This document shows positions 6,263-28,398 of a DNA stretch of 64,000 nucleotides, piece by piece. Under the pieces are notes generated by a model that was not told the origin of the DNA, did no database searches, and was given only the letters and a program-made list of their open reading frames with translations. The stretch covers positions 14,030 through 78,029 of the forward strand of contig JBHPFN010000002.1 in the NCBI GenBank assembly GCA_042571725.1, read 5' to 3'. Made by a program: the position numbers and the translations under genes. The stretch's first letter is position 1. Each line of letters starts with the position of its first letter. The stretch is from Candidatus Omnitrophota bacterium. Lineage in GTDB: Bacteria; Omnitrophota; Gorgyraeia; VGKH01; JBHPFN01.

Positions 6263-6281
6263 ATAGATGAAGCATTGAATG

Positions 6282-6314
6282 TGCGTTCCCGTGGCGTTTC
6301 GCCACGGGAACGCA
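6282..6314 (+). terminator. Perfect 15-bp stem / 3-nt loop hairpin downstream of the propeller gene (terminator-like, no T-tract)
   Basis: tgcgttcccgtggcg-ttt-cgccacgggaacgca, read directly. It starts 20 nt after the stop at 6262. The missing U-tract lowers confidence that it is an intrinsic terminator. Confidence 0.5.
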
Positions 6315-6409
6315 TAGAAGTGGAAAGGGTGAAAAAGGGGAAGCGACACCCAAATGTTCAATAGAGTGGGTGTTGAATTTCGTCTAATGCAAAGGAGGAC
6401 AAAATTCTA

Positions 6410-6778
6410 ATGGAGAAGAAAAGATTAGTTAGCAAAATGTCATTAGTTAGTGCGTTTATAATAGTGATACTGTTCGCACAAAATATATTTGCCGAACCGT
6501 TACCTTTTCCTATACCTAAACCAAAGGTGTCTATCAACGAAGCAATAGACCTTGCGTCAGAATATTTTTATAAAATTGAATCTTTCCCAGATGATGATTT
6601 TTTTAAAAAGAAAGATTTCATTCTTACTTTAGCAAGATACACGCACTATTATGATGATGATTTTCATAGTGAAGGGGCATGGTTTATAGCTTTTGTACAT
6701 CCAGTTGGAACTGATATTACTTATACATATAAAATTAGTAATGATAAAAAAGTAGTCCTTGTTGAACATACAGTATAA
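6410..6778 (+). CDS. Small exported hypothetical protein
   Basis: AAGGAGG RBS and a signal-peptide-like N-terminus (MEKKRLVSKMSLVSAFIIVILFAQNIFA|EP). No recognisable family. Confidence 0.7.
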   Translation: MEKKRLVSKMSLVSAFIIVILFAQNIFAEPLPFPIPKPKVSINEAIDLASEYFYKIESFPDDDFFKKKDFILTLARYTHYYDDDFHSEGAWFIAFVHPVGTDITYTYKISNDKKVVLVEHTV

Positions 6779-6966
6779 AATATATCTTTTCTCCCGCCCC
6801 AAAGTGAAGCGACAATTTATGAACGAAGGGGGAGTGAAACCCCGAACAACGTGAGGGGTAAAGCCTGCCTGCACTCATCGTGCTAGATAGTGAGTGCTGC
6901 ACCTACGAGTGAAAGCAATATGGGTGCTGCCGGCAGGCAGGGAGCAGCTTAAGTAAGGAGAAAGTA

Positions 6967-7440
6967 ATGGGGAAAGTCTATAAGTATTATAATCAACAGG
7001 AAGCATTGAAGATTGAAGCCAGTCTTAAATCTGAAAATATTCCTGTTGAAATCCATTCTTTTGAGAATTGGGGATACGATGGAGTATTTAGACATGAAGT
7101 TGGGATGGGCGAAGTTATAGTCCCTGATGAATACGAAAAAAGGGCTAAAGCTATTATAAGCGAAGTCTTAAAAGAATTTAAGCATACTGCTGAAGATATG
7201 GAATTCAAAATAATTAAACTTAGGCAATCGAGCAAGAGCGTGAATGGATTTCTTGTCTCTGCGGTTATTTCTATTCTTATTGGGTTATCAGTAACAGGGT
7301 ATTCTGTTTTTATTTCTGCTGGTGAGGGTATTATATTTCTTATGGGTTGTCTTATTATTTTTGTTGGTATTGCAATGATTTTTAATTGGAAGAAAGCACT
7401 AAAAGACCGCGAGAAATTGAAGCGGCTTAGCGAGAAGTAA
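6967..7440 (+). CDS. Hypothetical membrane protein; small N-terminal alpha/beta domain (possibly DUF2007-like) plus two C-terminal TM helices
   Basis: AAGGAG RBS. The N-terminal 70 aa are soluble and two hydrophobic helices follow (FLVSAVISILIGLSV, IIFLMGCLIIFVGIAMIF). The family call is weak. Confidence 0.6.
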   Translation: MGKVYKYYNQQEALKIEASLKSENIPVEIHSFENWGYDGVFRHEVGMGEVIVPDEYEKRAKAIISEVLKEFKHTAEDMEFKIIKLRQSSKSVNGFLVSAVISILIGLSVTGYSVFISAGEGIIFLMGCLIIFVGIAMIFNWKKALKDREKLKRLSEK

Positions 7441-7527
7441 ATAAAGGAGCAGTTCAGTCCCCGCCCTTGATTCATTTGGCGGGGCAGTCCCGAACGAAGT
7501 GAGGGATAAATAAGGAGGTAATTAGTG

Positions 7528-7782
7528 ATGGGATTAGAAAAATTAACAGAAATGGAAAGAAAAGAAATTGAGTATTTTAGGAAATCAATTAAAAATTCTG
7601 TTATTGCTGGAGTTATTATGCTTGTTGTAGGTTTTGTCTTACACACGACGGCTATATTGACGAAAAACGCACAGCTGTCAATCGGTACTCCCGTATTAAT
7701 GATTATGGGAACCGTGTTTGCAGTTAGGGCGATGGAAAGCAATAAGTGGATAAAAATTATTGATATACTAACAAAGAATTGA
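7528..7782 (+). CDS. Small two-TM hypothetical membrane protein
   Basis: AAGGAGG lies 9 nt upstream of the ATG at 7528 (the track starts at the GTG at 7525). Two hydrophobic segments. Confidence 0.6.
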   Translation: MGLEKLTEMERKEIEYFRKSIKNSVIAGVIMLVVGFVLHTTAILTKNAQLSIGTPVLMIMGTVFAVRAMESNKWIKIIDILTKN

Positions 7783-7811
7783 TTTTCAGCAATAGTCATA
7801 GAGGAGGCAGG

Positions 7812-9506
7812 ATGTTAAAGCAAATTAGAAATATAATGATTCTTATGGTTGTCGTAATGCAGTTTAGTATTCTTTGTTGTGCCCAAAAGGACACAGCTAT
7901 AAGCGCAGAGAAGATTATGCAAAAAAGGCCCCGCGAAGATGGGCACTGCTTTGATTTTACACAAGTTGTGCCGAAAAATATTGTTAAGAGGATAAATGGC
8001 ATGTGGGGAAGGGCCTTTGAGAGTTCCGACATTGATTTTGTAATGCTGATTATTCCTTCGTTAGACAATAATTCCATTACAGAATACGCAGCAGAGTTAT
8101 TTACCAAGTGGGAAATCGGCAAAAGCACACAAGGTAAAAAAGGCATTCTTATACTTATTGCGATGCAGGAACAGAAGATCAAGATTGAGATTGGATATGA
8201 TTTGGAAGAGGTATACACCGATATGTATGTCGGACAGGTCGAGCGGGATATGCTCAAGGAGTTCTTAGAACAGGCTGATTGGGAAAGAGGTTTTTTTGGG
8301 ACGATTGAACATTTTATTGGAAGAATCTATTTAGCGGAAAAGAAAGGCATCATTGTTGATGAGATTGCTGCCGAGGACGATCAACTTAGGTATTATTCAC
8401 AAGGGGCAGGTGCAAAAAATGTATTTGATTTTGGCGCGGCTTTAAATAAGCCGATTCCAAAGGTTCCGGCGGAATTGCGCGCGTATTTTGGCGCTCAGCC
8501 CACCCCTGAGCTGGCGTTTCAACGTTACATGGAGAAAAATACAAAACTTATAGCTGATCATACACTTGATCTTTACACTGAAAGCTCGAAGGTGTTTTAT
8601 AGCAACTGGCGCACAAGCTCCGGTCAAATGCGCGGGGAAGCAGAATGGTTTGACGGAATTCCCTATGTGGTAAAACAGAAAGGAAAGTATGCGGTAGTTT
8701 TGTTTCCTTGCAATGGTGATGTTTGGGAATTCATGATGCACAACCCTTACTTTTTCTATCGAAGTGAAAAGGGCTGGCAGATTGATATTAACACTATGTC
8801 CCGATCGCTGATAATGGGTGCCCGTGGTGCCGATTGGCATTTCATGAGCAGGCTGCATCCGTATATGTTTGCTTTTGATGATTATGTTCTAACGAGGGAA
8901 CTTTATCTCCCTGATGAGGGCCAAAAGGCATTTTTGGGTTTGGGGTATAAGAGGAATATCAACAAACAGTATAATGCCTTTGAAATCTTTCCTGCCTACG
9001 AAGGACCCGCGAAGAAAGCAGGTGTTGAAAGCGGAGATATCTTACTTTCAATTGATGGTGAAAAGATTACAAAGCAGTTTCAAGACTGGGAGATGATGAA
9101 GCGCTATAACCCCGGGGATGTGGTAGTTGTGGAAGTTCTTCGCAATGGTAAGGGAAAAAACATAAAAGTACGATTGGACGAGGTACCTAAAAAGAAATAT
9201 CCTGAGGTAAAAAAAACGGGCGACGCCTGGTTTGGTTTTTATAGAGGATACTCGCAGCCGTATGAAAGAAAGATAACTGGACCCAGAACCACTGATTCTG
9301 TTCTTTATGTTGTTAAGGGAAGCCCTGCAGAGAAAGCGGGATTAAAGGAAAGGGACGTTATTTTTGATAAGGACAGCGATTTTATGTATGATGAAACTAT
9401 AAAGCCTGGCGATAAAGTCACCTTCGAGGTCCTGCGCGATCTGAAGAAACGCATAAAGATTACTATCACCGCCGGAAGCTATTCACCTGGGAAAGAGGGG
9501 ATTTAA
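7812..9506 (+). CDS. TPM-domain protein with the same middle domain as 2220-3893 and two C-terminal PDZ domains
   Basis: GGAGG RBS before the ATG at 7812, with a lipoprotein-like N-terminus (FSILCCAQ). TPM signature: ITEYAAELFTKWEIGKSTQGKKGILILIAMQEQKIKIEIGYDLEE. PDZ motifs: GPAKKAGVESGDILLSIDG and GSPAEKAGLKERDVI. Confidence 0.8.
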   Translation: MLKQIRNIMILMVVVMQFSILCCAQKDTAISAEKIMQKRPREDGHCFDFTQVVPKNIVKRINGMWGRAFESSDIDFVMLIIPSLDNNSITEYAAELFTKWEIGKSTQGKKGILILIAMQEQKIKIEIGYDLEEVYTDMYVGQVERDMLKEFLEQADWERGFFGTIEHFIGRIYLAEKKGIIVDEIAAEDDQLRYYSQGAGAKNVFDFGAALNKPIPKVPAELRAYFGAQPTPELAFQRYMEKNTKLIADHTLDLYTESSKVFYSNWRTSSGQMRGEAEWFDGIPYVVKQKGKYAVVLFPCNGDVWEFMMHNPYFFYRSEKGWQIDINTMSRSLIMGARGADWHFMSRLHPYMFAFDDYVLTRELYLPDEGQKAFLGLGYKRNINKQYNAFEIFPAYEGPAKKAGVESGDILLSIDGEKITKQFQDWEMMKRYNPGDVVVVEVLRNGKGKNIKVRLDEVPKKKYPEVKKTGDAWFGFYRGYSQPYERKITGPRTTDSVLYVVKGSPAEKAGLKERDVIFDKDSDFMYDETIKPGDKVTFEVLRDLKKRIKITITAGSYSPGKEGI

Positions 9507-9508
9507 TC

Positions 9509-11221
9509 ATGTGTTCCAAAAACAATAAAAGGGTTATAAAATTCGCAATTATAATCTTAGGGATTTATATAATGTTACCTCAGCAAGCTTATGCTTCAGG
9601 ATATCATCCGCCGTTTGATCAGGCTGTTAAAGAGGCTGAGCTGATTGTGTTAGGAGACGTTATCGAGGCCTGGGATCCGAAAGCAAAACAGGATTCGGAA
9701 AGGTTTGATTTTTCTGAGGGGAGAGCGTATCGCATGCGCGTCGAGAAGGTGTACAAGGGCGACGTAAAAGCAGGAGATGAAATAATCTTTTGGGATGCCC
9801 ATTATATGAGTACGGCAAGCTACCATGTCAGTGAGGGCAATAAAAATTTAACCTTCCTTGTTCCAGCCGAATTGTCGGAATTTGAAAAAAGGCATTTTCA
9901 ATTTGGAACTCCCGAACTTTATCGTCCCATCACAAACTGTAATCAGGAATATGATTTTGATATTGGAGAGTATCAAGGGTATCTTTATCTTCTGGATCTG
10001 ACGCTCATGAATCCCCCTGAAGATCTGCGTCCAACATATACTAAGATCTTAAGGGAAGAGAATAATCGATATGTTCTCAGGTATGTCTTTGAGCATTGGC
10101 CTGCAGAATTGACTCAGGAGGATATTCTGCTCTTTCGAGAAACCTTTAATAAACACTATCAAGACGCCTATGTCACGAATCCGGCCATTGAACGGCTTGC
10201 CCTTCAGGGAGAATTTTTCGATGATACAAACTTAAGACAGCTTCTTAAGGAAGGAAGTTCTTACCAGAGAATGGAACTTTTGGCAATGGTAGATGCTAAG
10301 AATATTAAATCAGTTGAAGATATTCTTTTTGATTGGATCATGGAAGAAGAAAGAAATCTTGGTGAGCAAGAGAGCATTGAGATTCTTGCCGATCTTTCTC
10401 CGGAGTATTTAAGAAAGCAGCTCAGCAACCGAAAAATACCTTTTTGGAAATTAATCCCTTGCCTGCAGGCGCTCGAGATTAACGGAAGCGATGTTGGAAA
10501 GGAAGATTTTAGTCCGGAAATCCTTGCGTTAGATCCATATACGATCAGCAATATCGGTGAGGTCTATAGCGGAAAGGATTTCCATGGAATTTGCGCCATG
10601 GATTATATTCAGGAGTTAGAGTCTGATTTCGATGTGATCTGGGGATATTCTAGAGAGCGCGAGAAATGGAAGACGGCACTTCCTTTATTTGAGCCACTTT
10701 TGAAAAAACCTGACAGCCCCATACGAAGATTAGTAGTTGCATTAATGAGGACATATGGCCTTACTGTAGTAAGAGAAGGGGATGGTTATGTTGTTGACCG
10801 TAGCAAAACATCAGCTTCTCCACCTGTTAGGCTAGAAATTGAAGCACCGAAAGAACCTTTTCAACTCGGCGATTCTTTAAAACAATTGAGAGTAAAAGAA
10901 ACTGCAATAGCGGATGGAGCGTGGTTTTCTTTCAATGGCAGTTTGAGTTGGGCAGTTCGGGAAGATGATGGAGGCACTGCTGGTGGCGGTGGTACATTCG
11001 GCATTTTCGAGAACGTTGATATTCCAAAAGATAAATTTGTTCAACTAGAAGAAGGACAGACATTCTATTCTTCAGATTCTCTCGGATGGAGTATGAGTCG
11101 GCCGGGAAGATATTATGCATCGGTTTCTAAAGTGTATCCGCACGACGGAGCAAGCGTAGGCCTCGATGCCTGGACAGGAACCGTATTTTCCAACACAGTA
11201 GAAATAGAAGTGGTGGAATGA
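9509..11221 (+). CDS. Large exported hypothetical protein
   Basis: 570-aa intact ORF starting 2 nt after the upstream stop. Signal-peptide-like N-terminus (FAIIILGIYIMLPQQAYA|SG). No family recognised. Confidence 0.7.
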   Translation: MCSKNNKRVIKFAIIILGIYIMLPQQAYASGYHPPFDQAVKEAELIVLGDVIEAWDPKAKQDSERFDFSEGRAYRMRVEKVYKGDVKAGDEIIFWDAHYMSTASYHVSEGNKNLTFLVPAELSEFEKRHFQFGTPELYRPITNCNQEYDFDIGEYQGYLYLLDLTLMNPPEDLRPTYTKILREENNRYVLRYVFEHWPAELTQEDILLFRETFNKHYQDAYVTNPAIERLALQGEFFDDTNLRQLLKEGSSYQRMELLAMVDAKNIKSVEDILFDWIMEEERNLGEQESIEILADLSPEYLRKQLSNRKIPFWKLIPCLQALEINGSDVGKEDFSPEILALDPYTISNIGEVYSGKDFHGICAMDYIQELESDFDVIWGYSREREKWKTALPLFEPLLKKPDSPIRRLVVALMRTYGLTVVREGDGYVVDRSKTSASPPVRLEIEAPKEPFQLGDSLKQLRVKETAIADGAWFSFNGSLSWAVREDDGGTAGGGGTFGIFENVDIPKDKFVQLEEGQTFYSSDSLGWSMSRPGRYYASVSKVYPHDGASVGLDAWTGTVFSNTVEIEVVE

Positions 11222-11329
11222 CAGTCGCTCGCACGCAGGCTTTATTAAACAGTATTGACAAAGCTATTGAAATATTCGGAGGGAAGATTTGATGTCAATC
11301 CTCTATAAAAATAAGATAAAGGGGGAGTG

Positions 11330-11562
11330 ACACCCAAATGTTCAATAGAATGGGTGTTGAATTTCTGCACCCAGCGCGTTAACTACACCCAGCGTGCTAA
11401 ATAGGAGGTCTTGTACTCACTGATATAAAATAGCTGAGTGCTATAGGGTGCTGCACCCACTAATGTAAGAAATCTGGGTGCTAGCTAATGCAAAGGAGGG
11501 TAGCACTCAGCTTGTTTAGCACTAGTGAGTGTAGCACCCTCCCAGATTAAAACAGGGGGTGC
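11330..11562 (+). repeat. Array of about 6 tandem hairpin modules (GCACYCA / 12-16 nt loop / TGRGTGC) in the leader of 11572-12075
   Basis: Read directly, e.g. acaccca-aatgttcaatagaa-tgggtgt and gcaccca-ctaatgtaagaaatc-tgggtgc. One further unit, gcaccc-tcccagattaaaaca-ggggtgc, lacks the WTGTAR loop motif but is counted among the ~6 units of this array. Confidence 0.8.
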
Positions 11563-11571
11563 AAAATTCTA

Positions 11572-12075
11572 ATGGAGAAGAGAAAGTTACTTAGGGTGAC
11601 AAAATTCATATTTCTATTTCTTATTTTTATTGCGTCCAGCGCGTATGCTCAAACTACACCCGAGGAACTAGCTGCCCATTTAGCAGAAGCTATTAAAACA
11701 AACGATATTGAGGCTTTTGAAGCTCTGGTTCATCCACAAAGCTTGGAGTATTTAAAAGAGCATGACTTGGAGCAATTTAATAGAATTATAAAATATGGCC
11801 TTCTTGGACAAACCATAGAAAAAGATTATGAGATTAAAGTTTCTGACACAGCTGAGGAGAAGGAATATAATCTTCAACTCAACAGGTTGGAAATTAGAGA
11901 TAAATTTTTTATCTTTCCAGTTAAACCAAAGTATTATTTAAAAATTAGAAGTGTAACTAGGGATGAAGCTTTAAAGCTTACTAGTAAACATACTGTCGCT
12001 CGCTATTATATCGGCGAAGAGGAAGGAAGATGGTATATAATCTTAACAACGGAATCAGGCACTTTAGAGGAGTAA
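11572..12075 (+). CDS. Small exported hypothetical protein
   Basis: Signal-peptide-like N-terminus (MEKRKLLRVTKFIFLFLIFIASSAYA|QT). It shares the aaaattcTAATGGAGAAGA start context with the gene at 6410. Confidence 0.7.
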   Translation: MEKRKLLRVTKFIFLFLIFIASSAYAQTTPEELAAHLAEAIKTNDIEAFEALVHPQSLEYLKEHDLEQFNRIIKYGLLGQTIEKDYEIKVSDTAEEKEYNLQLNRLEIRDKFFIFPVKPKYYLKIRSVTRDEALKLTSKHTVARYYIGEEEGRWYIILTTESGTLEE

Positions 12076-12103: not shown

Positions 12104-12265
12104 ACACCCAGCAATGTAAGCGAGCACTCAGCGTGTAGGATAGGGAGTGTTGCGCCCAGGATGTAAATTAGGGGGCACTAAGCGTTGCTCCGCCGAAGGC
12201 GGGGCTACACACAGCATTGTAAAACGAGGGTGTGTTGCACTCACTAATGTAAAATACCTGAGTGC
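12104..12265 (+). repeat. Array of about 6 hairpin modules, including one CCGCC-GAA-GGCGG module, in the leader of 12278-12763
   Basis: Read directly: gcactca-ctaatgtaaaatacc-tgagtgc, gcgccca-ggatgtaaatta-gggggc, acacaca-gcattgtaaaacga-gggtgtgt, ctccgcc-gaa-ggcgggg. Confidence 0.8.
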
Positions 12266-12277: not shown

Positions 12278-12763
12278 ATGGAGATTAAAATAATGAAGAA
12301 AAGGGATAAAGATTTTTGGATTAGTAAGCATAAAGAAAGAAAAAATATTGCACTTGGATTTCTTTTTAAAGATGAACACATAGCTTTTGAATTATCTTAT
12401 AAGCAATGGAACTTATTTTTAAGGCTTATTAAGCTAACTAAAAGCAAAAAAAATCTTCCTAAAGGTGAGGATGCATTTCAAGGTATTAATTTGGATACAG
12501 GTAAATTGATGTATTTCAGTTTGAAAGTGCAACAGCTTATTCTCAAAACAATTATGAAAGAAAGTAAGGGTAGAATACCTCAAAATAAAGCAAGCGTTTG
12601 GAACAAAAGATATGTGAAAGATATTAAGAATAATTTTATGGCTAAGGAAATGCACATAGTAAAAAATGATGTTGTGTTGACCATATCAAGAAAGAAATTC
12701 CGAAGACTTTGCGAATACTGCCTAAACCAAAAAAACTTTATTATTATATCAGAGATATATTGA
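12278..12763 (+). CDS. Lys-rich hypothetical protein with no signal peptide
   Basis: TAAGGAGG RBS before GTGATG (ATG at 12278). Intact ORF, no family recognised. Confidence 0.6.
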   Translation: MEIKIMKKRDKDFWISKHKERKNIALGFLFKDEHIAFELSYKQWNLFLRLIKLTKSKKNLPKGEDAFQGINLDTGKLMYFSLKVQQLILKTIMKESKGRIPQNKASVWNKRYVKDIKNNFMAKEMHIVKNDVVLTISRKKFRRLCEYCLNQKNFIIISEIY

Positions 12764-12950
12764 ATTTACCTCACCCACCCCAAAGTAAAGCCTGCCTGCC
12801 GCCTGCCTGTCGGCAGACAGGGCAGGCAGGGAGCAGTTCAGCGCCCATGAGCTTAAAGAATAGTGGGTGCAGCACGGAGCGGAGCGAGGTGACACCCAGC
12901 ATGGAAAAAATAGCGGGTGTTACGTTCAGAATGAAAGCGAGGGAACGTTA

Positions 12951-13361
12951 ATGGAGAAGAAATTGCGATATTACATTTTAAATCTTTTTGTCATTGCTTT
13001 ATTTTTTTCAAGTCTGGTTTATGCGGCTACTCCTCAAACAATATGCGCAGTAATCTTTGGCATTACTATTGGAGAGAAGGGAGAATTGTTGGATGTTAGA
13101 ATAAGCAAGGTTATTGATGCATCTTCCGGCTCGACTGATGCAATAGAAGTTGAGATCCCTGATACGTATTTTGCGAATGCAAAAGCAAAGATTGAAAACC
13201 ATGGATACGAACCTGCATTGGAAAACGGAAGACCCAAAGAGTTCTTTACCTACTTTTATTATGATGCTAATCGGCCGGATGTAGTCATAGATGATACAAA
13301 GCTAATAGAATCTAAAGTCGTCCCGATTCGAGGCAGCAATTTGAAAAAGGAAGAGAGATGA
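12951..13361 (+). CDS. Small exported hypothetical protein (weak TonB-C-like pattern)
   Basis: I prefer the internal ATG at 12951 (MEKKLRYYILNLFVIALFFSSLVYA|AT). The 5' extension in the track runs through the repeat mosaic. The TAATG stop/start context is as at 6410 and 11572. Confidence 0.65.
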   Translation: MEKKLRYYILNLFVIALFFSSLVYAATPQTICAVIFGITIGEKGELLDVRISKVIDASSGSTDAIEVEIPDTYFANAKAKIENHGYEPALENGRPKEFFTYFYYDANRPDVVIDDTKLIESKVVPIRGSNLKKEER

Positions 13362-14023: not shown

Positions 14024-14087
14024 AGCGCAATTTCAGAAGGAGAAACTTAATGTTTAACGTACGTAAAAATAAAGCTAAGGAGGAACA

Positions 14088-14285
14088 ATGGAATTCTTGG
14101 AATTGTTAGCAGGCTGGGCTAATTTTCTTTTCCCGTTGTTGCTGGTTGGTTTTCTTCTCTACTATATCGTATTTATAAGAAGAAAGCGCGAAAAAAGGTA
14201 TTATGAGGTGGTAGAACGAAGCCTCGCCCAGGGAAAAGAACAGGTAGAGGTTTTGAGAGAAATCAGAGATTTGCTTAAGAAATGA
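14088..14285 (+). CDS. 65-aa single-TM hypothetical protein
   Basis: AAGGAGG RBS 6 nt upstream. One TM helix followed by a charged tail. Confidence 0.55.
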   Translation: MEFLELLAGWANFLFPLLLVGFLLYYIVFIRRKREKRYYEVVERSLAQGKEQVEVLREIRDLLKK

Positions 14286-14340
14286 TCTTGCCCGCCTTAA
14301 AGTGAGGGCTTAGCCCGTTTCGCTTACGTGTTACGGGCTA

Positions 14341-14506
14341 GCACCGAGCGAAGCGAGGTGAGCAATGTAAAGAAGGGGGTGTGGAAATGACACCCATAAT
14401 GTATACGACGGGGTGCTGCACTCATATTGTCAGGTAGTAGTAAGTGCTGTGCTCCCTATTGTAAAATATAGGAGCGCTGTACCAAAAATGTAAACTAGGG
14501 GGTACT
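14341..14506 (+). repeat. Array of hairpin modules (1 GAGCGAAGCGA-loop module and about 4 GCACYCA-type modules) abutting the GTG start at 14507
   Basis: Read directly: caccgagcgaagcgaggtg; acaccca-taatgtatacgac-ggggtg; gcactca-tattgtcaggtagtag-taagtgc; gctcc-ctattgtaaaatat-aggagc; gtacc-aaaaatgtaaactag-ggggtac. Confidence 0.75.
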
Positions 14507-15382
14507 GTGAGAAAACTATTACTCGTTTTAGCGTTTTGTTTATTAGCTACTTCTGTGTTTGCTCAAACATCAGTTATTTCTGGCAGGGTTGAGCTTCCAG
14601 AGGTCGATAAAGAAGGGAATCTATTTATAAAGTTTTCACCTGCAGGTCAGTTTCTTTCCGCCCCTGAAAGCGAGCGCTATTTTACCGTGATAAAGAAAGA
14701 AGATATCACATCACACAAAGTACCATACAAAATCGAGGTTGTTCCTCCAGGTAAATATTGGGGGTTTTGCACCTGGGATATTGCTGAATTTTTCTGGGAG
14801 CCATCATGGGGAGAAGGCAATTGTCCTGCGTATGAAGGAGATTATACTGGAGGCACTCAAGAGTTGATTGTTATTCAAGAAGGAGAAACCTTAGAAAATA
14901 TTGATTTTGAGTGCAAGAATTATCTTGGACAGACTGAGAAAAGCGGTTATCAGGCTGCGTACAAAATCCTCGATATCCGATACGAGAAAAACACTGAGAA
15001 CAATGAGCCCAAGATTCTTGTTAGGATTAAAAACATTGATACAAAACCTATCGGCGAGATATGGATGGGTTGTTTTATCAATGGCGAAGAAACGTTTGAT
15101 TTCAGCGTTTTTGATCTCGAGGATTTACTAGAGCCAGGGGAGCAAAGAGAATTTGATATGACGTATTGCTACACCGATACGTATCTTTCGCATCGCTTTG
15201 ACGAAGAGACGCTGAGGCTGAAAGATGCCGGCCCCTCTGTGTATGAATTGGATATTAAATTGGTCTCCAACGACAACGATGAGGTTTTTGAAAAACACAT
15301 TACCGTAACCGATGTTAAGCCAAGGATGATAAAAGAAGTTCTTGAGAGCGGTATGAATTATTACGAAATTATTTGGGAGTAA
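14507..15382 (+). CDS. Exported hypothetical protein
   Basis: GTG start, signal peptide MRKLLLVLAFCLLATSVFA|QT, 291-aa intact ORF. Confidence 0.7.
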   Translation: MRKLLLVLAFCLLATSVFAQTSVISGRVELPEVDKEGNLFIKFSPAGQFLSAPESERYFTVIKKEDITSHKVPYKIEVVPPGKYWGFCTWDIAEFFWEPSWGEGNCPAYEGDYTGGTQELIVIQEGETLENIDFECKNYLGQTEKSGYQAAYKILDIRYEKNTENNEPKILVRIKNIDTKPIGEIWMGCFINGEETFDFSVFDLEDLLEPGEQREFDMTYCYTDTYLSHRFDEETLRLKDAGPSVYELDIKLVSNDNDEVFEKHITVTDVKPRMIKEVLESGMNYYEIIWE

Positions 15383-15492
15383 ATATCGACAATTCCAACA
15401 GCAATATAAGCGACACCCAGGATGTAAAATAGAGGGTGTTGCCCCGCCAAAACCTGCCTGACGGCAGTCAGGGGCGGGGCTAAGGAAAAGAG

Positions 15493-15924
15493 ATGAAAAA
15501 TAGACTGTTTTTATCAATAATGATAATCTTATTAATGCCTGGCTTTGCGCTTTCGGATGTTATCGTTGAAATTCCAATACAATCAGAAAATAAAGAGGAA
15601 ATTGGATTTGACTTTCATATATCAAGTTATACGTATGAATCTACTGTCGGGCTAACCATTTCCTTTCAACCAACTGAAAAATTGAAGACGCTTTCAGAAA
15701 TTAGAGTTGAAGCGAGAAGATTTAATCAATTACTCTTTAACATTCCTTTAAAGATAGAAAAGGAAGAGGATGGATCGTTAGTGGGTGAATTTTCTGTCAG
15801 GAGAAACCTATTAGAGGAGACTAAGATTATTTTGATATGCGGTGACCCACTTTATCAATATTCAATTAGTCTTAAAAGCCAAGTAACACCCGCCTTCTCT
15901 GAAGTAAAGGAGCGCCTAGAATGA
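15493..15924 (+). CDS. Small exported hypothetical protein
   Basis: Preceded by CCCCGCC...GGCGGGG-CTAAGGAAAAGAG-ATG. Signal-peptide-like N-terminus. Confidence 0.65.
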   Translation: MKNRLFLSIMIILLMPGFALSDVIVEIPIQSENKEEIGFDFHISSYTYESTVGLTISFQPTEKLKTLSEIRVEARRFNQLLFNIPLKIEKEEDGSLVGEFSVRRNLLEETKIILICGDPLYQYSISLKSQVTPAFSEVKERLE

Positions 15925-18176: not shown

Positions 18177-18391
18177 GTTCTATAATCCCCCCCGAAGGCA
18201 GCGAGCATTGCGGAATTTCAGGGACACGCACTTTTTTAGTATTTGTACCCTTCGGGCTGCACTGCGGGTGCTGCACCCATATCTTTACGAACGAATGAGT
18301 GCTGCCCGCGTACCAACTATGCCAATAAACGCTAAAGACAAAAGTAAGCTTTTCAATCATTGAGGATTGTGCAAAAAAAGGAGCAAAATAG

Positions 18392-20304: not shown

Positions 20305-20480
20305 GAGGAATTCCGGCCCGCAGATTTTTATAATAGGGCGGACTGGAATTTCGCTCGGGGCAATCGAACACCCAGCGTGCAAATTAGAGAGTGCTGCGCA
20401 CTAGAGGCTTACGCCGGTGCGCTAGGTCGAAATTCCGGGGACACGCACCCCAAGAGATTAAAAACGCAAAAGGAGATATA

Positions 20481-21068
20481 ATGAAGAAGGTATTATTTAT
20501 TTTTTTGAGCGTGGCAATAGTTGGGTGTATTGTGTTGTGTTCGATGTCCGAGCTTGCAGCACAATATTCCGCTGAAGATTACAAAAAGAGGATCGAGTAT
20601 TTAAGTAAACATCCTGAGAAGGCCAGAAAGTATACCCCAGAGTCTTTAGATGCAAGTGTGGAGCCACCCGACGAACCTTCGGATGAAAGAGCGCAACCAC
20701 CAGAAGAGCCCTTAGATGAAAGCATAGAACCATCAGAAATTTCTGGTGTCCCTTGCGCAGAACGGGCAGATCATTTAGAAAAGTGTGAGCCTTATATGTG
20801 CCAGAAAGAAGATGATATGTCTCCTGGGAATATGATTACCCAAACCATTGAAGGTTTTGCCGGAGAGATGTGCGTATATAGGTTGGTAAGTACGAGTGGT
20901 CGTGAGATGGTATGCAAATTGTCTGATGATCAAAGGGCTAAGTTTGCAAAATCTATGGGAGGCAAAGAAGTTTCTGCGTATTCAGATCTGTTCGGAGCTT
21001 TTACGGAGGCACTTGAAACAGGAGAATGCGTTATTTATGAAAACGGCGAAGTCGTTCCTATTGAGTGA
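20481..21068 (+). CDS. Exported Cys-containing hypothetical protein, paralog of 21864-22433
   Basis: I prefer the ATG at 20481 after AAAGGAG. Shares (S)xEDYKKRIEYLSKHPE.A.KY.PES and a conserved Cys pattern with the downstream paralog. Confidence 0.7.
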   Translation: MKKVLFIFLSVAIVGCIVLCSMSELAAQYSAEDYKKRIEYLSKHPEKARKYTPESLDASVEPPDEPSDERAQPPEEPLDESIEPSEISGVPCAERADHLEKCEPYMCQKEDDMSPGNMITQTIEGFAGEMCVYRLVSTSGREMVCKLSDDQRAKFAKSMGGKEVSAYSDLFGAFTEALETGECVIYENGEVVPIE

Positions 21069-23030: not shown

Positions 23031-23783
23031 GTGAAAAAGATTATTTCTGCTACTTTTTTATTTTTCGCTTTAAGTATTGCTTCCATGGCTTTAGCTGCGG
23101 AGCTTGAAGTAGTAATTTATCCTTCTAATCAAACTGCAAGTTTTGATGCTGAAAAAAAAGTGAGAGAATATGTATTTAATGAAACCTGTTATACGGCATT
23201 TTTTGTCAAAGGATTCTCGAGAAATCCGGACGGCTCGATCGATCTAACTTCTCATGTTAAATGCATTGACCCCAAAGGGAATATTTTGTTTGATGAAAAA
23301 GACTATGCGAAAGCAAAATCAGCCCCTGCTGATGTCGAATTTATTAATTTGGATACGTCTTTCGATGTGACTATCGAAGACGGTGACCCTGTAGGAATGT
23401 ATGTTATCGAAGTAGAAGTAGTCGATACTATTTCAAAAGAAAATAAAATAGCTCAAACAACAGTATTCTATTTTGATACAAATGAATCTAAGAATTTGAT
23501 TATGAAACCGGTTAAAACCGCTGAAGACCTTGATAACTTATGGGCGGAATATTTCCGTTCGAAAAATCCTTGGGCGGTAAAGCGGATCATCTCTGCGCTG
23601 CGTCTTCGTAAAGAATCTCCCAAGCTCGAAGATGCGGTGGTTGGTGCCGCAGCGAAATGGTCGCTTGAATCAAACGCTAAACAACACCCCGATATCTTAG
23701 AGATTTGTAAGCAATCGCTTAAGAATACAAAAGGCGCAATAAACGAATTACTTCAAGAAATTATTGCAAATGCAGAGAAATGA
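23031..23783 (+). CDS. Exported hypothetical protein
   Basis: GTG start after AAAGGAGG, signal peptide ...SIASMALA|AE. Confidence 0.65.
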   Translation: MKKIISATFLFFALSIASMALAAELEVVIYPSNQTASFDAEKKVREYVFNETCYTAFFVKGFSRNPDGSIDLTSHVKCIDPKGNILFDEKDYAKAKSAPADVEFINLDTSFDVTIEDGDPVGMYVIEVEVVDTISKENKIAQTTVFYFDTNESKNLIMKPVKTAEDLDNLWAEYFRSKNPWAVKRIISALRLRKESPKLEDAVVGAAAKWSLESNAKQHPDILEICKQSLKNTKGAINELLQEIIANAEK

Positions 23784-24583
23784 AAATATTCATAAGCGAT
23801 CTACACTTAGGTGACGGTTCACGGACGGATGATTTTCACCGTGATAGGCAGCTTCTGGAATTTCTTGAATTTGTCGAGAGCCAGGCAAAGGAATTAATCA
23901 TCTTAGGGGATTTTCTTGAATTGTGGCAGGCCGACCTGGACAGGGTGGTGTTTAGGCACAGCGAGGTTATCAATAAACTTTTATCTTTAAGAAAAAAAAT
24001 AAAATTCACCTATGTCATCGGAAACCACGATTATATACCTTTTGTGAAATTTGTAGGAGCGGATAGCGACATAACCTTGGAATACCGCGATGACGAGCAG
24101 CAAATCGTTGCGGAGCACGGCCACCGATACGATATATTTAATCGCTACAAAAATCCACTGCGTTCAATTAAATGGCCGCCGGGAAAACATCTGACTTTGC
24201 TTGTCACCGGCCTAGAAAGATTTATTCATCCGGATGCCGATAAATGGACAAAGAACACATTGGTTAACCTTGACGAATTTTTACAAAAGGCAATAACCGT
24301 ACGAAATAAGATTACCCCCTCCAGCAAAGACTACGTAAAGTGCGGGGGTCATTTCGGAGAGTTTCAGGAAGCGGTGAAGAACCATATCAGAGAAGGGGCA
24401 AAGGTAGTTGTCTTCGGCCATACGCATAAGCCCCAGCTAGACAATGTAGAACAGGGAATTTATGCTAACTGCGGAACATGGGTAGATGCCGATACGCCTA
24501 CGTACATTGTCTGCTACAAAGATAAAGTAGAGCTCAGAGAAGCGCTGAGTCAAAAATTGATTAAAGATTTAGCGATAAAATAA
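23780..24583 (+). CDS. Calcineurin-like metallophosphoesterase (LpxH-like)
   Basis: ATGA overlap. Motifs: ISDLHLGDG, LGDFLELW, GNHD, HGH, FGHTH. Confidence 0.8.
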   Translation: MKIFISDLHLGDGSRTDDFHRDRQLLEFLEFVESQAKELIILGDFLELWQADLDRVVFRHSEVINKLLSLRKKIKFTYVIGNHDYIPFVKFVGADSDITLEYRDDEQQIVAEHGHRYDIFNRYKNPLRSIKWPPGKHLTLLVTGLERFIHPDADKWTKNTLVNLDEFLQKAITVRNKITPSSKDYVKCGGHFGEFQEAVKNHIREGAKVVVFGHTHKPQLDNVEQGIYANCGTWVDADTPTYIVCYKDKVELREALSQKLIKDLAIK

Positions 24584-24651
24584 GAGAAGTAGGGGCGCAT
24601 ACTTCTTGCGTAGAAAAATAGAATTCAGCTAAACTTGTTGCGTAGAAACTT

Positions 24652-25128
24652 ATGTGTACGACTAGACACTTTTTAAAAGTAATCCTCGTTTTGTTGTTTA
24701 CGTGCGTATTTTGCTCGGCTGTAAGTGCGCAGGTGGATGATTATAGTTATCAAGAGCAGTATGTGCTGCGTCTTCGCGAGAAGCCGGTAATGCTTGCCGC
24801 GCGCGCAAAGGCGGTTGACGAAGATGAAAACGGCCTCTACGATTTTCTGCAGATAACGCTGGATTTGGAAATTGTCGAATTCGGCCATTATTTTTTTAAA
24901 TGGTCATTGCTGACCCTTGAGGGCCAAGAAGTAACGCACTATGGAGTGGGTAGGATGTTTAAGCCAGGGGTACACAAACAAGATATTTATATTGCCTCTG
25001 TTGCAATGAGTCAGAGCCTTTTAGACGGCCCGTATATCGTTAAGGTCGATCTGGTCAAAGATTACAAAGAGATTATCGACCGAACCACCTACCGGACCAG
25101 GCCGTATCTGGCAGGGGATTTTGAGTGA
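24652..25128 (+). CDS. Small exported hypothetical protein
   Basis: Signal-peptide-like N-terminus ...CVFCSAVSA|QV. No obvious SD. Confidence 0.55.
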   Translation: MCTTRHFLKVILVLLFTCVFCSAVSAQVDDYSYQEQYVLRLREKPVMLAARAKAVDEDENGLYDFLQITLDLEIVEFGHYFFKWSLLTLEGQEVTHYGVGRMFKPGVHKQDIYIASVAMSQSLLDGPYIVKVDLVKDYKEIIDRTTYRTRPYLAGDFE

Positions 25129-25286
25129 ATCGGATCACTAGGATGTAAACGACACCCAGCAATGTAAGCGAGGGGCCCCCTTCGGGGTCGTCTACATGTA
25201 CCGAGTTATGTCACGTACGTTCCATAACTCGAACATTCGACGGTGTTGCCCGCCAATGAAGTAATGGCGGGCTAAGGGGAGATAAG

Positions 25287-25547
25287 ATGAGAAAGCCGGT
25301 AAAAATTATTTATGAGATTAGCTGCTTTATTGTTTTCTTTTTCTTGTCAACGTTCTCCGCTTATTCAGTTGCTTCAAGAATCATATATAAGATGCAGCCC
25401 GACCGACCTGTTGAAGATATTCAAAGGTATATTGAAAGCGGTGGTCCTGGCATAGCAATATTTGGCGGCTTTTTTTTCATTTTATTTCTCATTTTATTGT
25501 ATGTCATTAAAAGCATTGTGGAAAAGCGGTTAAAAAAGGAGGCCTGA
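25287..25547 (+). CDS. 86-aa two-TM hypothetical protein
   Basis: Preceded by GCCCGCC-loop-GGCGGGC-TAAGGGGAG. Two hydrophobic helices. Confidence 0.6.
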   Translation: MRKPVKIIYEISCFIVFFFLSTFSAYSVASRIIYKMQPDRPVEDIQRYIESGGPGIAIFGGFFFILFLILLYVIKSIVEKRLKKEA

Positions 25548-25548
25548 A

Positions 25549-26379
25549 ATGACTAAATTATTCTTACTCGTTTTACTCTGCATTTCTCTAGCCACCCCTG
25601 TCTTTGCTCAACGAGACGCTACCACCTTCGCCACGCCAATAAAGAAGCACAATATCTACACCGACATCAAAGTCATCAAGGTTTTTGATTGCGCTACCTT
25701 AGAGCTCCAGAGCGGTGAAAAGGTGCGTCTTATCGGCGTTAAGTGTCCTGAAGCAAAAACAAAGGCATGTAATAAGGCCACAGAGTTTGTTAAGGATTTA
25801 TTGGGAGAAAAGGACAACAGCGTTCGTTTAGAGTATGATGTTGAAGAGAAAGATGAGCTCGGGAGATTACTAGCGTATGTGTATATTGATTTAGGATTGG
25901 TAGATGTGGAGGCAAGAGAGGGGATTTACTATACCTTTGATTACGGAACCTCTGTGTTTGTCAATGCCAGTATTATTCAGTCCGGTTTTGCTTCGCCGGT
26001 AACCAGCGGCCCTAATGTTCAACATGCGGAAGTGTTTCAGGAGCTGTTTCAGGAAGCGGTGCTATCAAAACAAGGCCAATGGCAAGAGCGCGAAGTAGGC
26101 AAAGAAGGTTGTCTCAGCCTTGGGGGCGCGTGGGGTATATTCGGCGAGCTGCAGGATAAACAATGCAACTTGCCCACAACCGACAAAGGTAAACCTTGCA
26201 AAAACTATAGCGATTGCCATGGTGCGTGCATTGCTGATTTGACCGATGAACAATGGAAGAGGGCAGAGCAAGGGGATGTATTGACCACAGACGGTAAATG
26301 CTCCGCATGGACGCTTAATTACAGCTGTCTTCCCTTTGTTGAAGGCGGAAAGGTTAAGGGTATCCTCTGTCAAGATTAA
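25549..26379 (+). CDS. Exported staphylococcal-nuclease (SNase/thermonuclease)-like protein with a C-terminal Cys-rich domain
   Basis: Signal peptide ...ATPVFA|QR. SNase-like landmarks: V.KV.DC.TLEL..GEKVRLIGV.CPE, LGRLLAYVY, ...IIQSGFA. The C-terminal ~100 aa contain 8 Cys. Confidence 0.65.
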   Translation: MTKLFLLVLLCISLATPVFAQRDATTFATPIKKHNIYTDIKVIKVFDCATLELQSGEKVRLIGVKCPEAKTKACNKATEFVKDLLGEKDNSVRLEYDVEEKDELGRLLAYVYIDLGLVDVEAREGIYYTFDYGTSVFVNASIIQSGFASPVTSGPNVQHAEVFQELFQEAVLSKQGQWQEREVGKEGCLSLGGAWGIFGELQDKQCNLPTTDKGKPCKNYSDCHGACIADLTDEQWKRAEQGDVLTTDGKCSAWTLNYSCLPFVEGGKVKGILCQD

Positions 26380-26415
26380 CAGGAGACAAAAAGAGAATAA
26401 AAGAGGGTTGCAGAG

Positions 26416-27093
26416 ATGAAGAATAAAACAAGCACAGTAGTATTCATTACGTTAGTTCTTATTGCTAAACTATCCTTTGCAGAATCTTGTATGCCAAAGC
26501 CAGCAGAGTTTCACTTCTTAAATGCAGATGTTGTATTTACAGGGAAGGTGGAAAATATCGAAGAGCTTGGAAAACAAGATGAGATGTATGTGAAAAGTAA
26601 GGTAAGGCTAAACGTTGAAGAAGTATTGAAAGGCGATGTGTCCGATTCAGTTGTGGTGTTTGAAAATACTTACTACGGAGCAATGTTTAAAGAAAATGAA
26701 AGATATTTGGTCTTTGCCGGTTTTTTGGATGAAGAACTCTTAACCGGCTCATGTTCCGGTACAAAAAATATGAAATATCTTTCTGATGAGTTTAAAAAGA
26801 TAGAACGTATTAACCAATTGATTCAGGGACAAATGAAATCCATTAAAAATCTTGATGAAGATGAAGAGCTTAAGTATGAGATCTCTATAGTTGATGATGG
26901 CGCCATAGAATATAAACAATATGATGAAAACGGAAGGCTGCTTTTTCATGACACTTTTAAAGATGGTGAACATATATGGAGGCAATTTTTTAATGATGGG
27001 ATGTATAAGTATATAGAATATTTGTATAAAAATGGGAAGTTAATATATCTTAAAAAATATGACCAAAACGGTAAGCTTATTCTTGAAGAGTAG
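26416..27093 (+). CDS. Exported protein with C-terminal MORN-variant (YwqK-like) repeats
   Basis: Signal peptide ...IAKLSFA|ES. C-terminal YDENGRLLFHDTFKDGEH...YKNGKLIYLKKYDQNGKLILEE. Confidence 0.65.
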   Translation: MKNKTSTVVFITLVLIAKLSFAESCMPKPAEFHFLNADVVFTGKVENIEELGKQDEMYVKSKVRLNVEEVLKGDVSDSVVVFENTYYGAMFKENERYLVFAGFLDEELLTGSCSGTKNMKYLSDEFKKIERINQLIQGQMKSIKNLDEDEELKYEISIVDDGAIEYKQYDENGRLLFHDTFKDGEHIWRQFFNDGMYKYIEYLYKNGKLIYLKKYDQNGKLILEE

Positions 27094-27268
27094 TTGTGTG
27101 GGAAAATAAACGGCCCGTTGAGGGAAACGAGGTGGCACCCAGCATTCTAAAATCAGGGGGCACTCAAAATGTAGGATAGGGAGTGTTACCTCGCCAGAAT
27201 TTGCCTTATGGCAATCATGGGCGAGGTTAAGTGTTGCCCCGCCCTTGGCGGGGCTAAGGAGAAATGAA

Positions 27269-27946
27269 ATGAAAAAACTATTAATTGTTTTAATATGTTT
27301 AGCGTTGATTACAGCCTTCAGTTCATTATTTGTAATAAATTTGGTAAAAAATAGATTGCCAAACATGATTACAGAGACACTCTCTAAGCATATAACCGTT
27401 GATTCGATTAAGATTGCTCTAAACGGGCAATTTATTTTAGAAGGAACACCTGATGAAGCGGCTGATGATTCTACACTCGTGCTGGTATTAATGGATAGCG
27501 ATTTATTTAAGAACGTTCAGTTGGAAAAAGTAAAAGCGGAAATTGTCGACTGTGAAATAATGCGTGAATTTGCCATTAGTGGTTATCTAACCCCTGTTGC
27601 TCTATTTAATGAAAAAACTCAAGCGTCTTTAGAAGTTATTAGCAAAAACTTTATAAGAGAAAAACAACAGTCAGACAAAGATGCAGATATGCGTGCAAAA
27701 AAAATGGATTCTTTACTTGAAAGACTTCTCAACGAATATGTAGATGTTTCTTCGAGCGAGCCAGAGTATTGGAAAAAGCAATGGACAATAATAGAAAAAG
27801 ACCCAGAGCTTGAGAATCTACGCTGGTATCAGAGAGATTTTCTTAGAATGATTTATGCGAAATATTCAGGGAAAAAATGCAATATAACAGGAGAAGAACT
27901 TGAAAGATGGTATGACGATTTTTATTATGAAAAGGAACTAAAATGA
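27269..27946 (+). CDS. Exported/anchored hypothetical protein
   Basis: I prefer the ATG at 27269 after GGCGGGG-CTAAGGAG. N-terminus MKKLLIVLICLALITAFSSL. Confidence 0.65.
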   Translation: MKKLLIVLICLALITAFSSLFVINLVKNRLPNMITETLSKHITVDSIKIALNGQFILEGTPDEAADDSTLVLVLMDSDLFKNVQLEKVKAEIVDCEIMREFAISGYLTPVALFNEKTQASLEVISKNFIREKQQSDKDADMRAKKMDSLLERLLNEYVDVSSSEPEYWKKQWTIIEKDPELENLRWYQRDFLRMIYAKYSGKKCNITGEELERWYDDFYYEKELK

Positions 27947-28398
27947 CACCAAAAGTGTTAGTCAGGGGGTGTTGTACCCCGAATGTGAACGAGAGGATAC
28001 TAAAAAACCCGGTACTCTTTTTAATTTTTTTAGCGCTGATGTTGGCAACAGCAAGCTATGCCCAAGAGCAGCAGACAATAGATTACGAAGCTATCCAGCA
28101 ACAGGCAGCAGATATTGATTATTCCGACGGCATTAATAAGCAAGAGGCGGTTCTCTTAGCCCAGAATGTTTTTATAGAGCAAGGGAATGCTGAGGATTTC
28201 TTTCTCAGCGACCCCATTGTTACCAAAGAGACAGTAGAGGTTCTCTACGAAACTCAACAAGGGTCAGCGCGCAAACAAGTAGAGGTTTGGGCTGTTGGTT
28301 TCACATCAAGATTCGCCGCAAAAGGAACAGCGCTTTTGCCTTCTTTCGGCGTTGATATCGATACTGCGACAGGCGAGTTTGTTGTGAGGATGCAATAG
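27943..28398 (+). CDS. Exported hypothetical protein (start uncertain: ATG 27943 or in-frame GTG 27985)
   Basis: ATGA overlap favours 27943, but the first 14 codons coincide with a hairpin module (acacc-aaaagtgttagtcag-ggggtgt). The GTG at 27985 would give MNERILKNPVLFLIFLALMLATASYA|QE. Confidence 0.6.
   Translation: MTPKVLVRGCCTPNVNERILKNPVLFLIFLALMLATASYAQEQQTIDYEAIQQQAADIDYSDGINKQEAVLLAQNVFIEQGNAEDFFLSDPIVTKETVEVLYETQQGSARKQVEVWAVGFTSRFAAKGTALLPSFGVDIDTATGEFVVRMQ

Follow-up and report, generated by a model that had tools for sequence, protein, structure and literature searches.

Small interspersed palindromic repeats have been well studied in a few Proteobacteria and Firmicutes, and are essentially undescribed in candidate phyla such as the Omnitrophota. 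Among the families of repetitive extragenic palindromes (REPs) and bacterial interspersed mosaic elements (BIMEs), the palindrome of classic REPs is preceded on its 5' side by a conserved GT(A/G)G head, and the arrangement that defines REP-associated tyrosine transposases (RAYTs) is a rayt gene flanked by inverted repeats (PMC2817692). The BOX elements of Streptococcus pneumoniae alter the expression of neighbouring genes in an orientation-dependent manner, and transcribed repeats in other bacteria attenuate transcripts, stabilise them or direct their cleavage by RNases, with repeat-borne sites reported for ERIC (RNase E) and Correia (RNase III) elements (summarised in PMC3049150). Full-text literature searches returned no description of comparable intergenic hairpins, or of relevant integron or attC work, in the Omnitrophota, the only match being an unrelated resistome paper. 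Here we analyse a 64,000-nucleotide stretch of a Candidatus Omnitrophota genome (contig JBHPFN010000002.1, positions 14,030 to 78,029; hereafter the window), in which an initial annotation had pointed out a family of short hairpin units filling the intergenic leaders of a gene island. This family occupies the leaders of co-directional, mostly orphan genes that for the most part encode secreted proteins. On balance, and with modest confidence, we favour the view that it constitutes a lineage-specific, small and non-autonomous family of palindromic DNA repeats, functionally closest to REP/BIME and BOX elements, which is reshuffled in these leaders.

The unit consists of the arm [G/A]CAC[C/T]CA, a 13-16-nt loop and the arm TG[G/A]GTG[C/T], for an overall length of 27-30 nt. 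Its loop is A-rich, conserved in sequence and asymmetric, with the form NN(N)-TGTAAAATAG and variants that include TGTAGGATAG and TGCAAATTAG. A total of 25-26 units were identified, spread over 12 intergenic leaders of the 6.3-28 kb region, 24 of them picked by eye and two more retrieved with a covariance model and a repeat finder; counted from the sequence and from our own listing, this total upholds the initial claim of at least about 25 hairpins and their locations. Within arrays, consecutive units are linked by a single T. The junction sequence that had been given for the arrays, GGGTGCTGCACCC, occurs in exact form only twice (11446 and 18266), and the remaining junctions are variants of it that maintain the single-T linker.

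Analysis of the 7-bp stem revealed that 86.9% of the cells in a MAFFT alignment of the units are paired, a figure inflated by the choice of units by eye as hairpins, compared with 27-59% when the partner position is slid. Changes on both sides were observed at five of the seven stem pairs (20 cells), with the outer pair alternating between G-C and A-U and the fifth between C-G and U-A. The covariation score of the stem was reached by none of 500 shuffles, and the pattern CACYCANNNTGYWRRWTAGNGRGTG presented five matches in the window versus 0.00 expected from 100 shuffles, bearing out the contention that the stems exceed chance. At least two loop sub-families each span CACCCA and CACTCA stems (6871 versus 11385, and 11453 versus 12237) and, judging from these sequences, the sub-families are not merely two master copies. 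Watson-Crick pairs average 5.6 of 7 inside units versus 3.8 of 7 across junctions, and the junction palindrome was ruled out as the functional unit because pairing takes place within units. Stem mismatches comprise seven G:T and nine A:C pairs. Individual units fold as predicted, with a mean RNA minimum free energy (MFE) of -8.5 kcal/mol and a mean z-score of -2.5, and folding of the whole leaders yielded z-scores between -2.5 and -8.6 for nine of the 12.

Most loops contain TAA or TAG stops in two frames. About half of them hold an NTG directly followed by TAA or TAG, in a start-stop arrangement (e.g. 12161, 12246, 14487, 15422 and 27169), and two loop ATGs initiate upstream open reading frames (uORFs) of 16-18 codons (6354-6410 and 12902-12951), the TAA of the uORF overlapping the main ATG (TAATG). 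The genes at 15493 and 16753 start with ATGAAAAATAG, one base off the loop core.

A covariance model built from 24 units was run with filters off against both strands of the entire 64 kb. All matches with E<0.01 fall within 6343-27975 and none in the other 42 kb, supporting the initial observation that the family is absent outside 6-28 kb. The claim of extragenic location likewise stands: the intergenic fraction of the island, 12.6% after correction of over-extended open reading frame (ORF) starts, contains all 25-26 units. The longest-ORF starts at 12867, 20391, 27245 and 27943 run into hairpin units, and the true starts, based on signal peptide and Shine-Dalgarno (SD) positions, are likely at 12951, 20481, 27269 and 27985. 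The units thus cause over-extended ORF calls and expose the intergenic regions of such metagenome-assembled genomes (MAGs) to mis-assembly, both of which are of relevance to annotators. When scored by the loop core TGTAAAATAG, orientation favours the + strand in 22 of 25 units and the - strand in one, with two ties, and A exceeds T in the loop of 20 of the 24 informative units, in line with the proposed single orientation; the few units that score higher on the - strand in the model do so because their arms are palindromic and the MAFFT alignment blurred the loop. As read from the leader sequences, the final hairpin ends approximately 1-36 nt before the start codon, and commonly 9-15 nt before it. 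For three genes (11572, 14507 and 27985) the G-rich 3' arm of the last hairpin is the sole SD-like element. There is no one-to-one relation between units and genes, since the number of units per spacer varies and many island gene junctions lack them.

Comparison among leaders provided evidence of dispersal. The most similar loop was located in a different leader for 22 of 24 units, close to the 89% predicted for relatedness unlinked to position, and there is hence no sign of local tandem duplication. An origin of the arrays by tandem duplication was accordingly rejected, adjacent units not being mutual closest relatives. The leader segment at 6331-6432 (+ strand; repeat families D12 and D16) is shared with 11315-11365 (92%) and 11562-11594 (88%), and the part shared with the latter includes the SD, the ATG and the first codons (MEKK); the proteins encoded downstream of the two leaders (6331-6409 and 11315-11594) share no detectable similarity. 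Relative to leader 6331-6409, the blocks 11367-11486 (120 nt) and 11499-11563 (65 nt) are insertions. All-against-all BLASTP of the island proteins identified a single paralogous pair (g20481 and g21864, 51.5% identity), of which g20481 bears modules in its leader and g21864 presents a plain 56-nt leader without units. In addition, the near parity of G:T and A:C mismatches fits the neutral decay of DNA palindromes, since G-U pairs would be expected to gain from selection for an RNA helix. These observations argue for modules dispersed as DNA repeats and against regulators dedicated to individual genes.

All the features described in this and the next paragraph are on the + strand. The leader of gene 6410 contains a single unit (6346-6373; ACACCCA / AATGTTCAATAGAG / TGGGTGT; 30.1 bits, MFE -10.3). 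In the MFE structure, a GC clamp at 6863-6941 (GCCTGCCTG...CCGGCAGGCAGG) encloses two units in its loop (6871-6897 and 6899-6927). The largest array (11330-11562) encompasses units 11330-11357, 11453-11481, 11503-11532 and 11534-11562, and inside it an outer unit (11366-11451) whose loop encloses units 11385-11411 and 11413-11441; without these two nested units, the outer unit has a normal 15-nt loop. The array at 12104-12265, which ends 12 nt 5' of the ATG at 12278, is made up of a half unit (12104-12123), units 12124-12150, 12152-12178, 12207-12235 and 12237-12265, and a CCGCC hairpin (12188-12204). The leader of the gene starting at 12951 (12790-12920) combines a clamp hairpin (12790-12830), a unit (12841-12870), a small hairpin (12873-12891) and a second unit (12892-12920). 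Four head-to-tail units with single-T linkers (14390-14505) precede the GTG start at 14507, and the last 3' arm of this array, AGGGGGTAC, is the only SD-like sequence 5' of that GTG. The segment 15413-15479 contains a unit (15413-15439; 35.6 bits) followed by a CCCCGCC...GGCGGGG hairpin (15442-15479), CTAAGGA and the ATG at 15493. Two units at 18244-18302, one of them degenerate (18244-18271) and the other at 18273-18302, form part of the leader of the BLUF gene (repeat families D2 and D9), and a single unit (20368-20394; repeat family D1) is present in the leader of the gene starting at 20481. The unit at 25152-25248 is split by approximately 66 nt of other hairpins in its loop, with the 5' arm and loop at 25152-25171 and the 3' arm within 25238-25248; its 5' part is identical to the half unit at 12104-12123, and it is directly followed by a CCCGCC hairpin (25249-25271) abutting CTAAGGGGAG-ATG. 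The stretch 27135-27253 (family D20) contains two overlapping units (27135-27163 and 27160-27186), another hairpin and a CCCCGCC hairpin (27237-27253) abutting CTAAGGAG. Lastly, a unit detected by the model alone (27946-27972; 23.6 bits) lies in the over-extended 5' end of ORF 27943-28398, and the likely GTG start at 27985 is located 12 nt past its 3' arm, AGGGGGTG.

The 12 long leaders (84-350 nt) are made of recurring modules, and several module types accompany the units. There are four copies of a small hairpin with a GAAC/GAGC...GA loop, namely CCCC-GAACAACGTGA-GGGG at 6840-6858 and its sisters at 7489-7505, 12873-12891 and 14342-14360, and three of the GCCTGCC...GGCAGGC clamp (6863-6941, 12790-12830 and 15453-15472), essentially where both had been placed beforehand. 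The 6863-6941 clamp holds two units; its sister at 12790-12830 has a short loop. Five CCCGCC-loop-GGCGGG hairpins were identified. The proposal that these are set immediately before the SD and ATG applies to three of them (15442-15479, 25249-25271 and 27237-27253), which abut CTAAGG(A/G)G-ATG, and fails for the other two: that at 12188-12204 is within an array, and at 7459-7505 the CCCCGCC hairpin (7459-7484) is separated from the SD by a small hairpin (7489-7505), followed by AAGGAGG and the start at 7528. The hairpin at 15442-15479 has the clamp-type hairpin 15453-15472 in its loop. The module AAGGAGCAGTT (7445-7454), 5' of hairpins 7459-7505, is common to a locus in a second Omnitrophota genome (L003, below). 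A post-stop motif, CCCRCCYYAAAGTRARG (family D15), is found 10-15 nt past stop codons at 6793-6809, 12774-12790 and 14291-14307, and a (G/A)GGAGCAG(C/T)T motif is also recurrent. A further shared leader module was observed at 18212-18231 (GGAATTTCAGGGACACGCAC) and 20430-20448 (GAAATTCCGGGGACACGCAC).

The island itself (6.3-28.4 kb) comprises approximately 33 genes, all on the + strand, with a G+C content of 0.36-0.43, lower than the 0.43-0.50 of the downstream region. Their products are mostly small, with an N-terminal signal peptide or transmembrane helix and no Pfam match, and few present recognisable domains (FMN-reductase, BLUF, DoxX, metallophosphatase and SNase). The spacers between the remaining gene pairs are short and plain, and no intrinsic terminators were detected between most island genes. 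The product of g12278, a basic, non-secreted orphan amid the densest arrays, showed neither a HUH motif nor a match in Pfam or NCBIfam. For the protein encoded at 9509-11221, homologues were identified at 34-51% identity, and the loci of three of them (P0004, P0005 and P0007; 42-50% identity) contained no units; no close homologue was found for the protein encoded at 3947-6262. Just 3' of the PQQ-repeat gene, a perfect 15-bp hairpin without a U-tract (6282-6314, + strand; TGCGTTCCCGTGGCG TTT CGCCACGGGAACGCA) coincides with the upstream boundary of the module-rich region. Short membrane peptides below the ORF-list cutoff were also noted on the + strand, with 69 residues at 28402-28611 and, in the island, 66 residues at 14086-14286.

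An exact-pattern scan of 185,579 GTDB species-representative genomes returned three matches, of which one is a true relative: a 2.8-kb contig from an Omnitrophota MAG (JBDRFF010000029.1; L003), in which three sense-orientation units lie 5' of a GH26 gene encoding a signal peptide. This locus also shares the AAGGAGCAG module. The family hence occurs in a different context in this second MAG, and its portrayal as marking an accessory island is descriptive only. Other GTDB matches were discarded as chance occurrences, one falling inside a 455-residue ORF (L002) and another scoring only 16 bits (L004). Pattern scans of IMG/VR (one weak, unrelated match) and of JGI metagenomes (two matches of 20-21 bits on AT-rich or unrelated contigs) yielded nothing of interest, and BLAST searches of the largest array against plasmid and phage collections returned no match. 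On the - strand of L003 (approximately 2440-1490) lies an HTH-Fic gene that is served by a sigma-70-like promoter of its own and appears to have been inserted, the final ~30 nt of the DUF169-like gene upstream being duplicated in the process.

GH26 orthologues with 69-91% identity were examined in seven further contexts (L012-L021), and no unit was present in any of them, indicating that the hairpins are not a conserved regulatory feature of that gene. The neighbours of the GH26 gene differ at every locus, with six to seven contexts among related contigs (L003, L012, L013, L014, L017, L018 and L020), and the 91% DNA identity between L003 and L020 extends over exactly the GH26 ORF, both sides being unalignable. 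Together, these two observations reveal that the gene arrays are hypervariable. In L012, a 69-nt direct repeat with 99% identity brackets the GH26 ORF (L012:9784-11068), and mosaic leaders are built from other modules (GGGACGTTCCCCAAATT four times and AAATAGGGACACATCCCCGAACG three times) as well as from the GCCTGCCTGCCGGCAGGCAGG clamp also found in the window. On this comparison, the GH26 gene behaves like a shuffled cassette.

The comparison also outlined a link to RAYTs for one of the accompanying modules. A 161-residue protein encoded on the minus strand of another of these loci (L018:12872-13357) matches the NCBIfam model for REP-associated tyrosine transposases (NF047646) with 87.8 bits (cutoff 80), and its gene is flanked by 62-nt inverted repeats (L018:12808-13499) that carry GTCCCGAACGATTGGGAC. 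The CCCGAAC-loop motif is common to this inverted repeat, to the window hairpins at 7489-7505 and 6840-6858, to L017, where it is in tandem, and to L012. Its presence in the RAYT flanks makes it plausible that one or more of the accompanying module families are REP material of the RAYT type. Moreover, the locus indicates that RAYT/REP systems exist beyond the Proteobacteria, in which they were first defined.

Two tested features of the units agree with those of REPs, an extragenic location and an imperfect palindrome kept by complementary mutations, and the initial proposal of a REP/BIME-like family holds with respect to a lineage-specific extragenic mosaic subject to dispersal, nesting and presence/absence variation among paralogues and close relatives, units being gained or lost over short evolutionary spans. 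It does not hold for the GT(A/G)G head or for alternating orientation, and these are two of the points that count against a family of dispersed repeats of this type. The 5' flanks (GCT, GTT, GTG, GCG, CGA and others) lack the GT(A/G)G head, and neither strand shows a conserved tetranucleotide there. BIME-like alternation is absent, the arrays running head to tail with a 1-nt linker, a same-orientation arrangement that was correctly singled out at the outset as atypical for REPs. The unit loop is far longer than in classic REPs, and the leaders show no target-site duplications and no terminal inverted repeats beyond the arms. The count of 26 copies refers to 22 kb of the 64 kb examined; genome-wide, REP/BIME families typically number above 100. 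No RAYT or IS200/IS605-type gene, and no Y1, integrase, transposase or recombinase domain, was detected in the 58 window proteins scanned (1-56.5 kb); a RAYT link of the CACCCA unit itself is purely conjectural. The covariation of the stem partly mirrors the sub-families, and the family is known from two genomes only, so that its dispersal dynamics rest on comparisons within the window. Finally, a conserved loop, strict sense orientation and tight SD spacing are also expected of a protein-bound RNA operator. The family is a demonstrated member of neither REP/BIME nor BOX elements, and it does not represent a new kind of biology.

If the units are nevertheless a family of dispersed DNA repeats, new copies would arise at the DNA level, by insertion beside existing hairpins or into their single-stranded loops. 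Recombination between leaders would add further copies, and homologous recombination could account for the shared segments that include SD and ATG. The likeliest agent may be a RAYT-type Y1/HUH enzyme whose gene lies in another part of the genome: enzymes of this class work on hairpins in single-stranded form and on one strand, which would explain the uniform orientation, the growth of arrays on the 3' side and the insertion into loops. Given the sense orientation of every copy relative to the genes, the units would be transcribed into polycistronic mRNAs as hairpins. Those abutting or containing the ribosome-binding site would probably stabilise or insulate as 5' stem-loops, with the AU-rich loops as probable processing sites. 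This stabiliser-like geometry and the known effects of transcribed repeats (PMC3049150) make it likely that the units affect mRNA fate, an effect that would be a by-product or a co-option and not the reason for the existence of the family. The architecture is unusual in that the stem is short and the conserved loop long, the arrays run head to tail in strictly one orientation, and loops are nested in loops; the family takes up about one eighth of a 22-kb array. Mobilisation of the units by a Y1/HUH enzyme would mean that REP/RAYT-type biology reaches a further phylum and takes in a new repeat geometry, and hairpins that shape mRNA stability or translation would constitute natural 'insulator' parts.

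An alternative that we regard as possible but unlikely is that the units are RNA operators, that is, 5'-leader hairpins bound through the loop UGUAAAAUAG by a single trans-acting RNA-binding protein or ribonuclease, with cooperative arrays that define a secreted-protein regulon. The sense orientation of 22 of 25 units, the conserved loop and covarying stem, the restriction to leaders with the last hairpin near the SD or start codon, and the signal peptides encoded by most downstream genes in both the window and L003 are all consistent with such a function. However, G-U mismatches are not preferred over A-C (seven versus nine), units are lacking 5' of the GH26 orthologues, including one 91% identical in DNA, and one paralogue of the g20481/g21864 pair is devoid of them. 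Furthermore, nested and truncated copies (12104-12123 and 25152-25248) resemble insertion debris, the downstream genes include some that encode cytoplasmic proteins (BLUF and g12278), and the island holds no recognisable gene for an RNA-binding protein. A trans-acting complementary RNA was also considered and rejected, as the window contains no + strand copy of the loop complement, and similarities to dif/Xer sites or PUF-type UGUA motifs were dropped as coincidental and of the wrong geometry.

It is quite unlikely that the modules, as single-stranded DNA structures or dispersed direct repeats, serve as the points at which ORF cassettes are excised, inserted and reordered independently of attC sites and IntI. 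A 22-kb same-strand array of small, mutually unrelated ORFs would be expected under such shuffling, which is also suggested by the six to seven different neighbourhoods of the GH26 gene, by the termination of L003/L020 homology exactly at the ORF ends, by the 99% identical 69-nt direct repeat that brackets GH26 in L012, and by the leader modules, ATG and first codons included, that unrelated genes share. Yet variable multiples of units and the many junctions without any imply that the units do not delimit cassettes one-to-one, no integrase or recombinase was detected among the scanned proteins, and ordinary homologous recombination at any repeat gives the same pattern. The intergenic regions contain no attC-type pairs of core sites: a regular-expression scan restricted to the R'' (RYYYAAC) and R' (GTTRRRY) core sites returned four matches on both strands, all of them in genes, against 5.4 expected from shuffles, and integrons proper were ruled out on this result. 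We deem it scarcely likely that an Omnitrophota-specific cassette system exists in which strand-specific hairpins reorder ORFs, each gene carrying a portable leader of hairpin, SD and ATG; were it true, it would represent an integron analogue independent of attC and IntI, building hypervariable arrays of secreted orphans in putatively host-dependent nanobacteria.

Duplex operators for a dimeric DNA-binding protein, recognising either the half-sites GCACCCA/TGGGTGC or the junction palindrome TGGGTGC-T-GCACCCA, are very improbable. The inverted arms and the perfect 13-nt palindrome at two junctions would suit such operators, but the spacing between half-sites is variable (13-16 bp), the asymmetric conserved loop is left unexplained, and compensatory variation occurs within units and not across junctions (5.6 versus 3.8 of 7), which implies intrastrand pairing. 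Chance or a compositional artefact, in favour of which there is nothing beyond the first selection of units by eye, is already refuted, to the point of being negligible, by the five pattern matches against 0.00 expected, the confinement of significant model matches to 12.6% of one 22-kb region and the independent three-unit array in L003.

Promoter and terminator scans gave counts at the level of shuffles and were uninformative, and a search for tRNA and tmRNA genes found none. With Rfam 15 at the gathering threshold, the only match in the window was a c-di-GMP-I-GGC riboswitch (RF03167; 30247-30334, + strand; 61.5 bits, above the gathering score), the hairpin units matching no family; it is located in a 357-nt spacer 5' of two pseudopilin-like genes (30435-31458) with N-terminal methylation motifs. 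A permissive Rfam scan of 6000-28700 returned two miRNA matches only, at chance level. A short HypC-like gene below the ORF-list cutoff lies between hypF and hypD (40926-41122, + strand). On the - strand, large (832-855 residues) and small (218-274 residues) ORFs alternate at 51382-63892 in what looks like a tandem array of paralogues, and two of the large ones were scanned without a Pfam match.

The leaders of ompA and ermC contain 5' stabiliser stem-loops, and the units share with these the location of a hairpin just 5' of the ribosome-binding site, inside a longer transcript; the effects of the former are experimental, whereas that of the units is deduced from position only. The MIRUs of Mycobacterium tuberculosis are reportedly non-hairpin repeats of 46-101 bp with small ORFs translationally coupled to the flanking genes. 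Like them, the units are head-to-tail repeats in operon spacers and oriented with transcription; unlike them, they are hairpins with TAA or TAG in their loops, and only two loop ATGs open short uORFs. CRISPR arrays, in which repeats of 23-50 nt alternate with unique spacers of about the same size, were discarded because the whole period is 28-31 nt and the 'spacers' would be loops of 13-16 nt that are related to one another. With integron attC and CALIN arrays, the island has in common co-directional, small and unrelated ORFs, strand-specific structured palindromic sites between them and hypervariable contexts. Unlike in those arrays, a single spacer may hold several units, many junctions have none, and no core sites are present; nor was IntI, which CALINs also lack, detected among the 58 proteins of 1-56.5 kb.

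The closest parallels are those with BOX and REP/BIME elements. As in BOX (boxA - tandem boxB(n) - boxC; Croucher et al. 2011, PMC3049150), the arrangement is modular, with a small module in head-to-tail arrays of variable number, and the elements are intergenic, transcribed and predicted to fold into stem-loops. There is no sequence similarity, however, and BOX modules are 45-59 nt long, with terminal inverted repeats and target-site duplications, whereas the Omnitrophota units are 27-30 nt long and each form their own hairpin without a fixed A...C frame: no constant terminal modules surround the arrays, and the order of modules differs in every leader. With respect to the REP/BIME elements of Proteobacteria, which RAYT (Y1/HUH) transposases mobilise (Nunvar et al. 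2010, PMC2817692; Bertels and Rainey 2011, PMC3116915), the units combine a 6-7-bp stem with a conserved loop of 13-16 nt where REPs have a long, imperfect stem around a short middle, are co-oriented head to tail where REPs alternate or form REPIN doublets, and nest inside loops, with no cognate RAYT identified in the first 56.5 kb of the window. Like REP/BIME elements, they are short extragenic palindromes with compensatory stem changes, lineage-specific, located in operon spacers and combined into mosaics with other motifs, and the Omnitrophota include a RAYT with one of the accompanying module types on its flanks.

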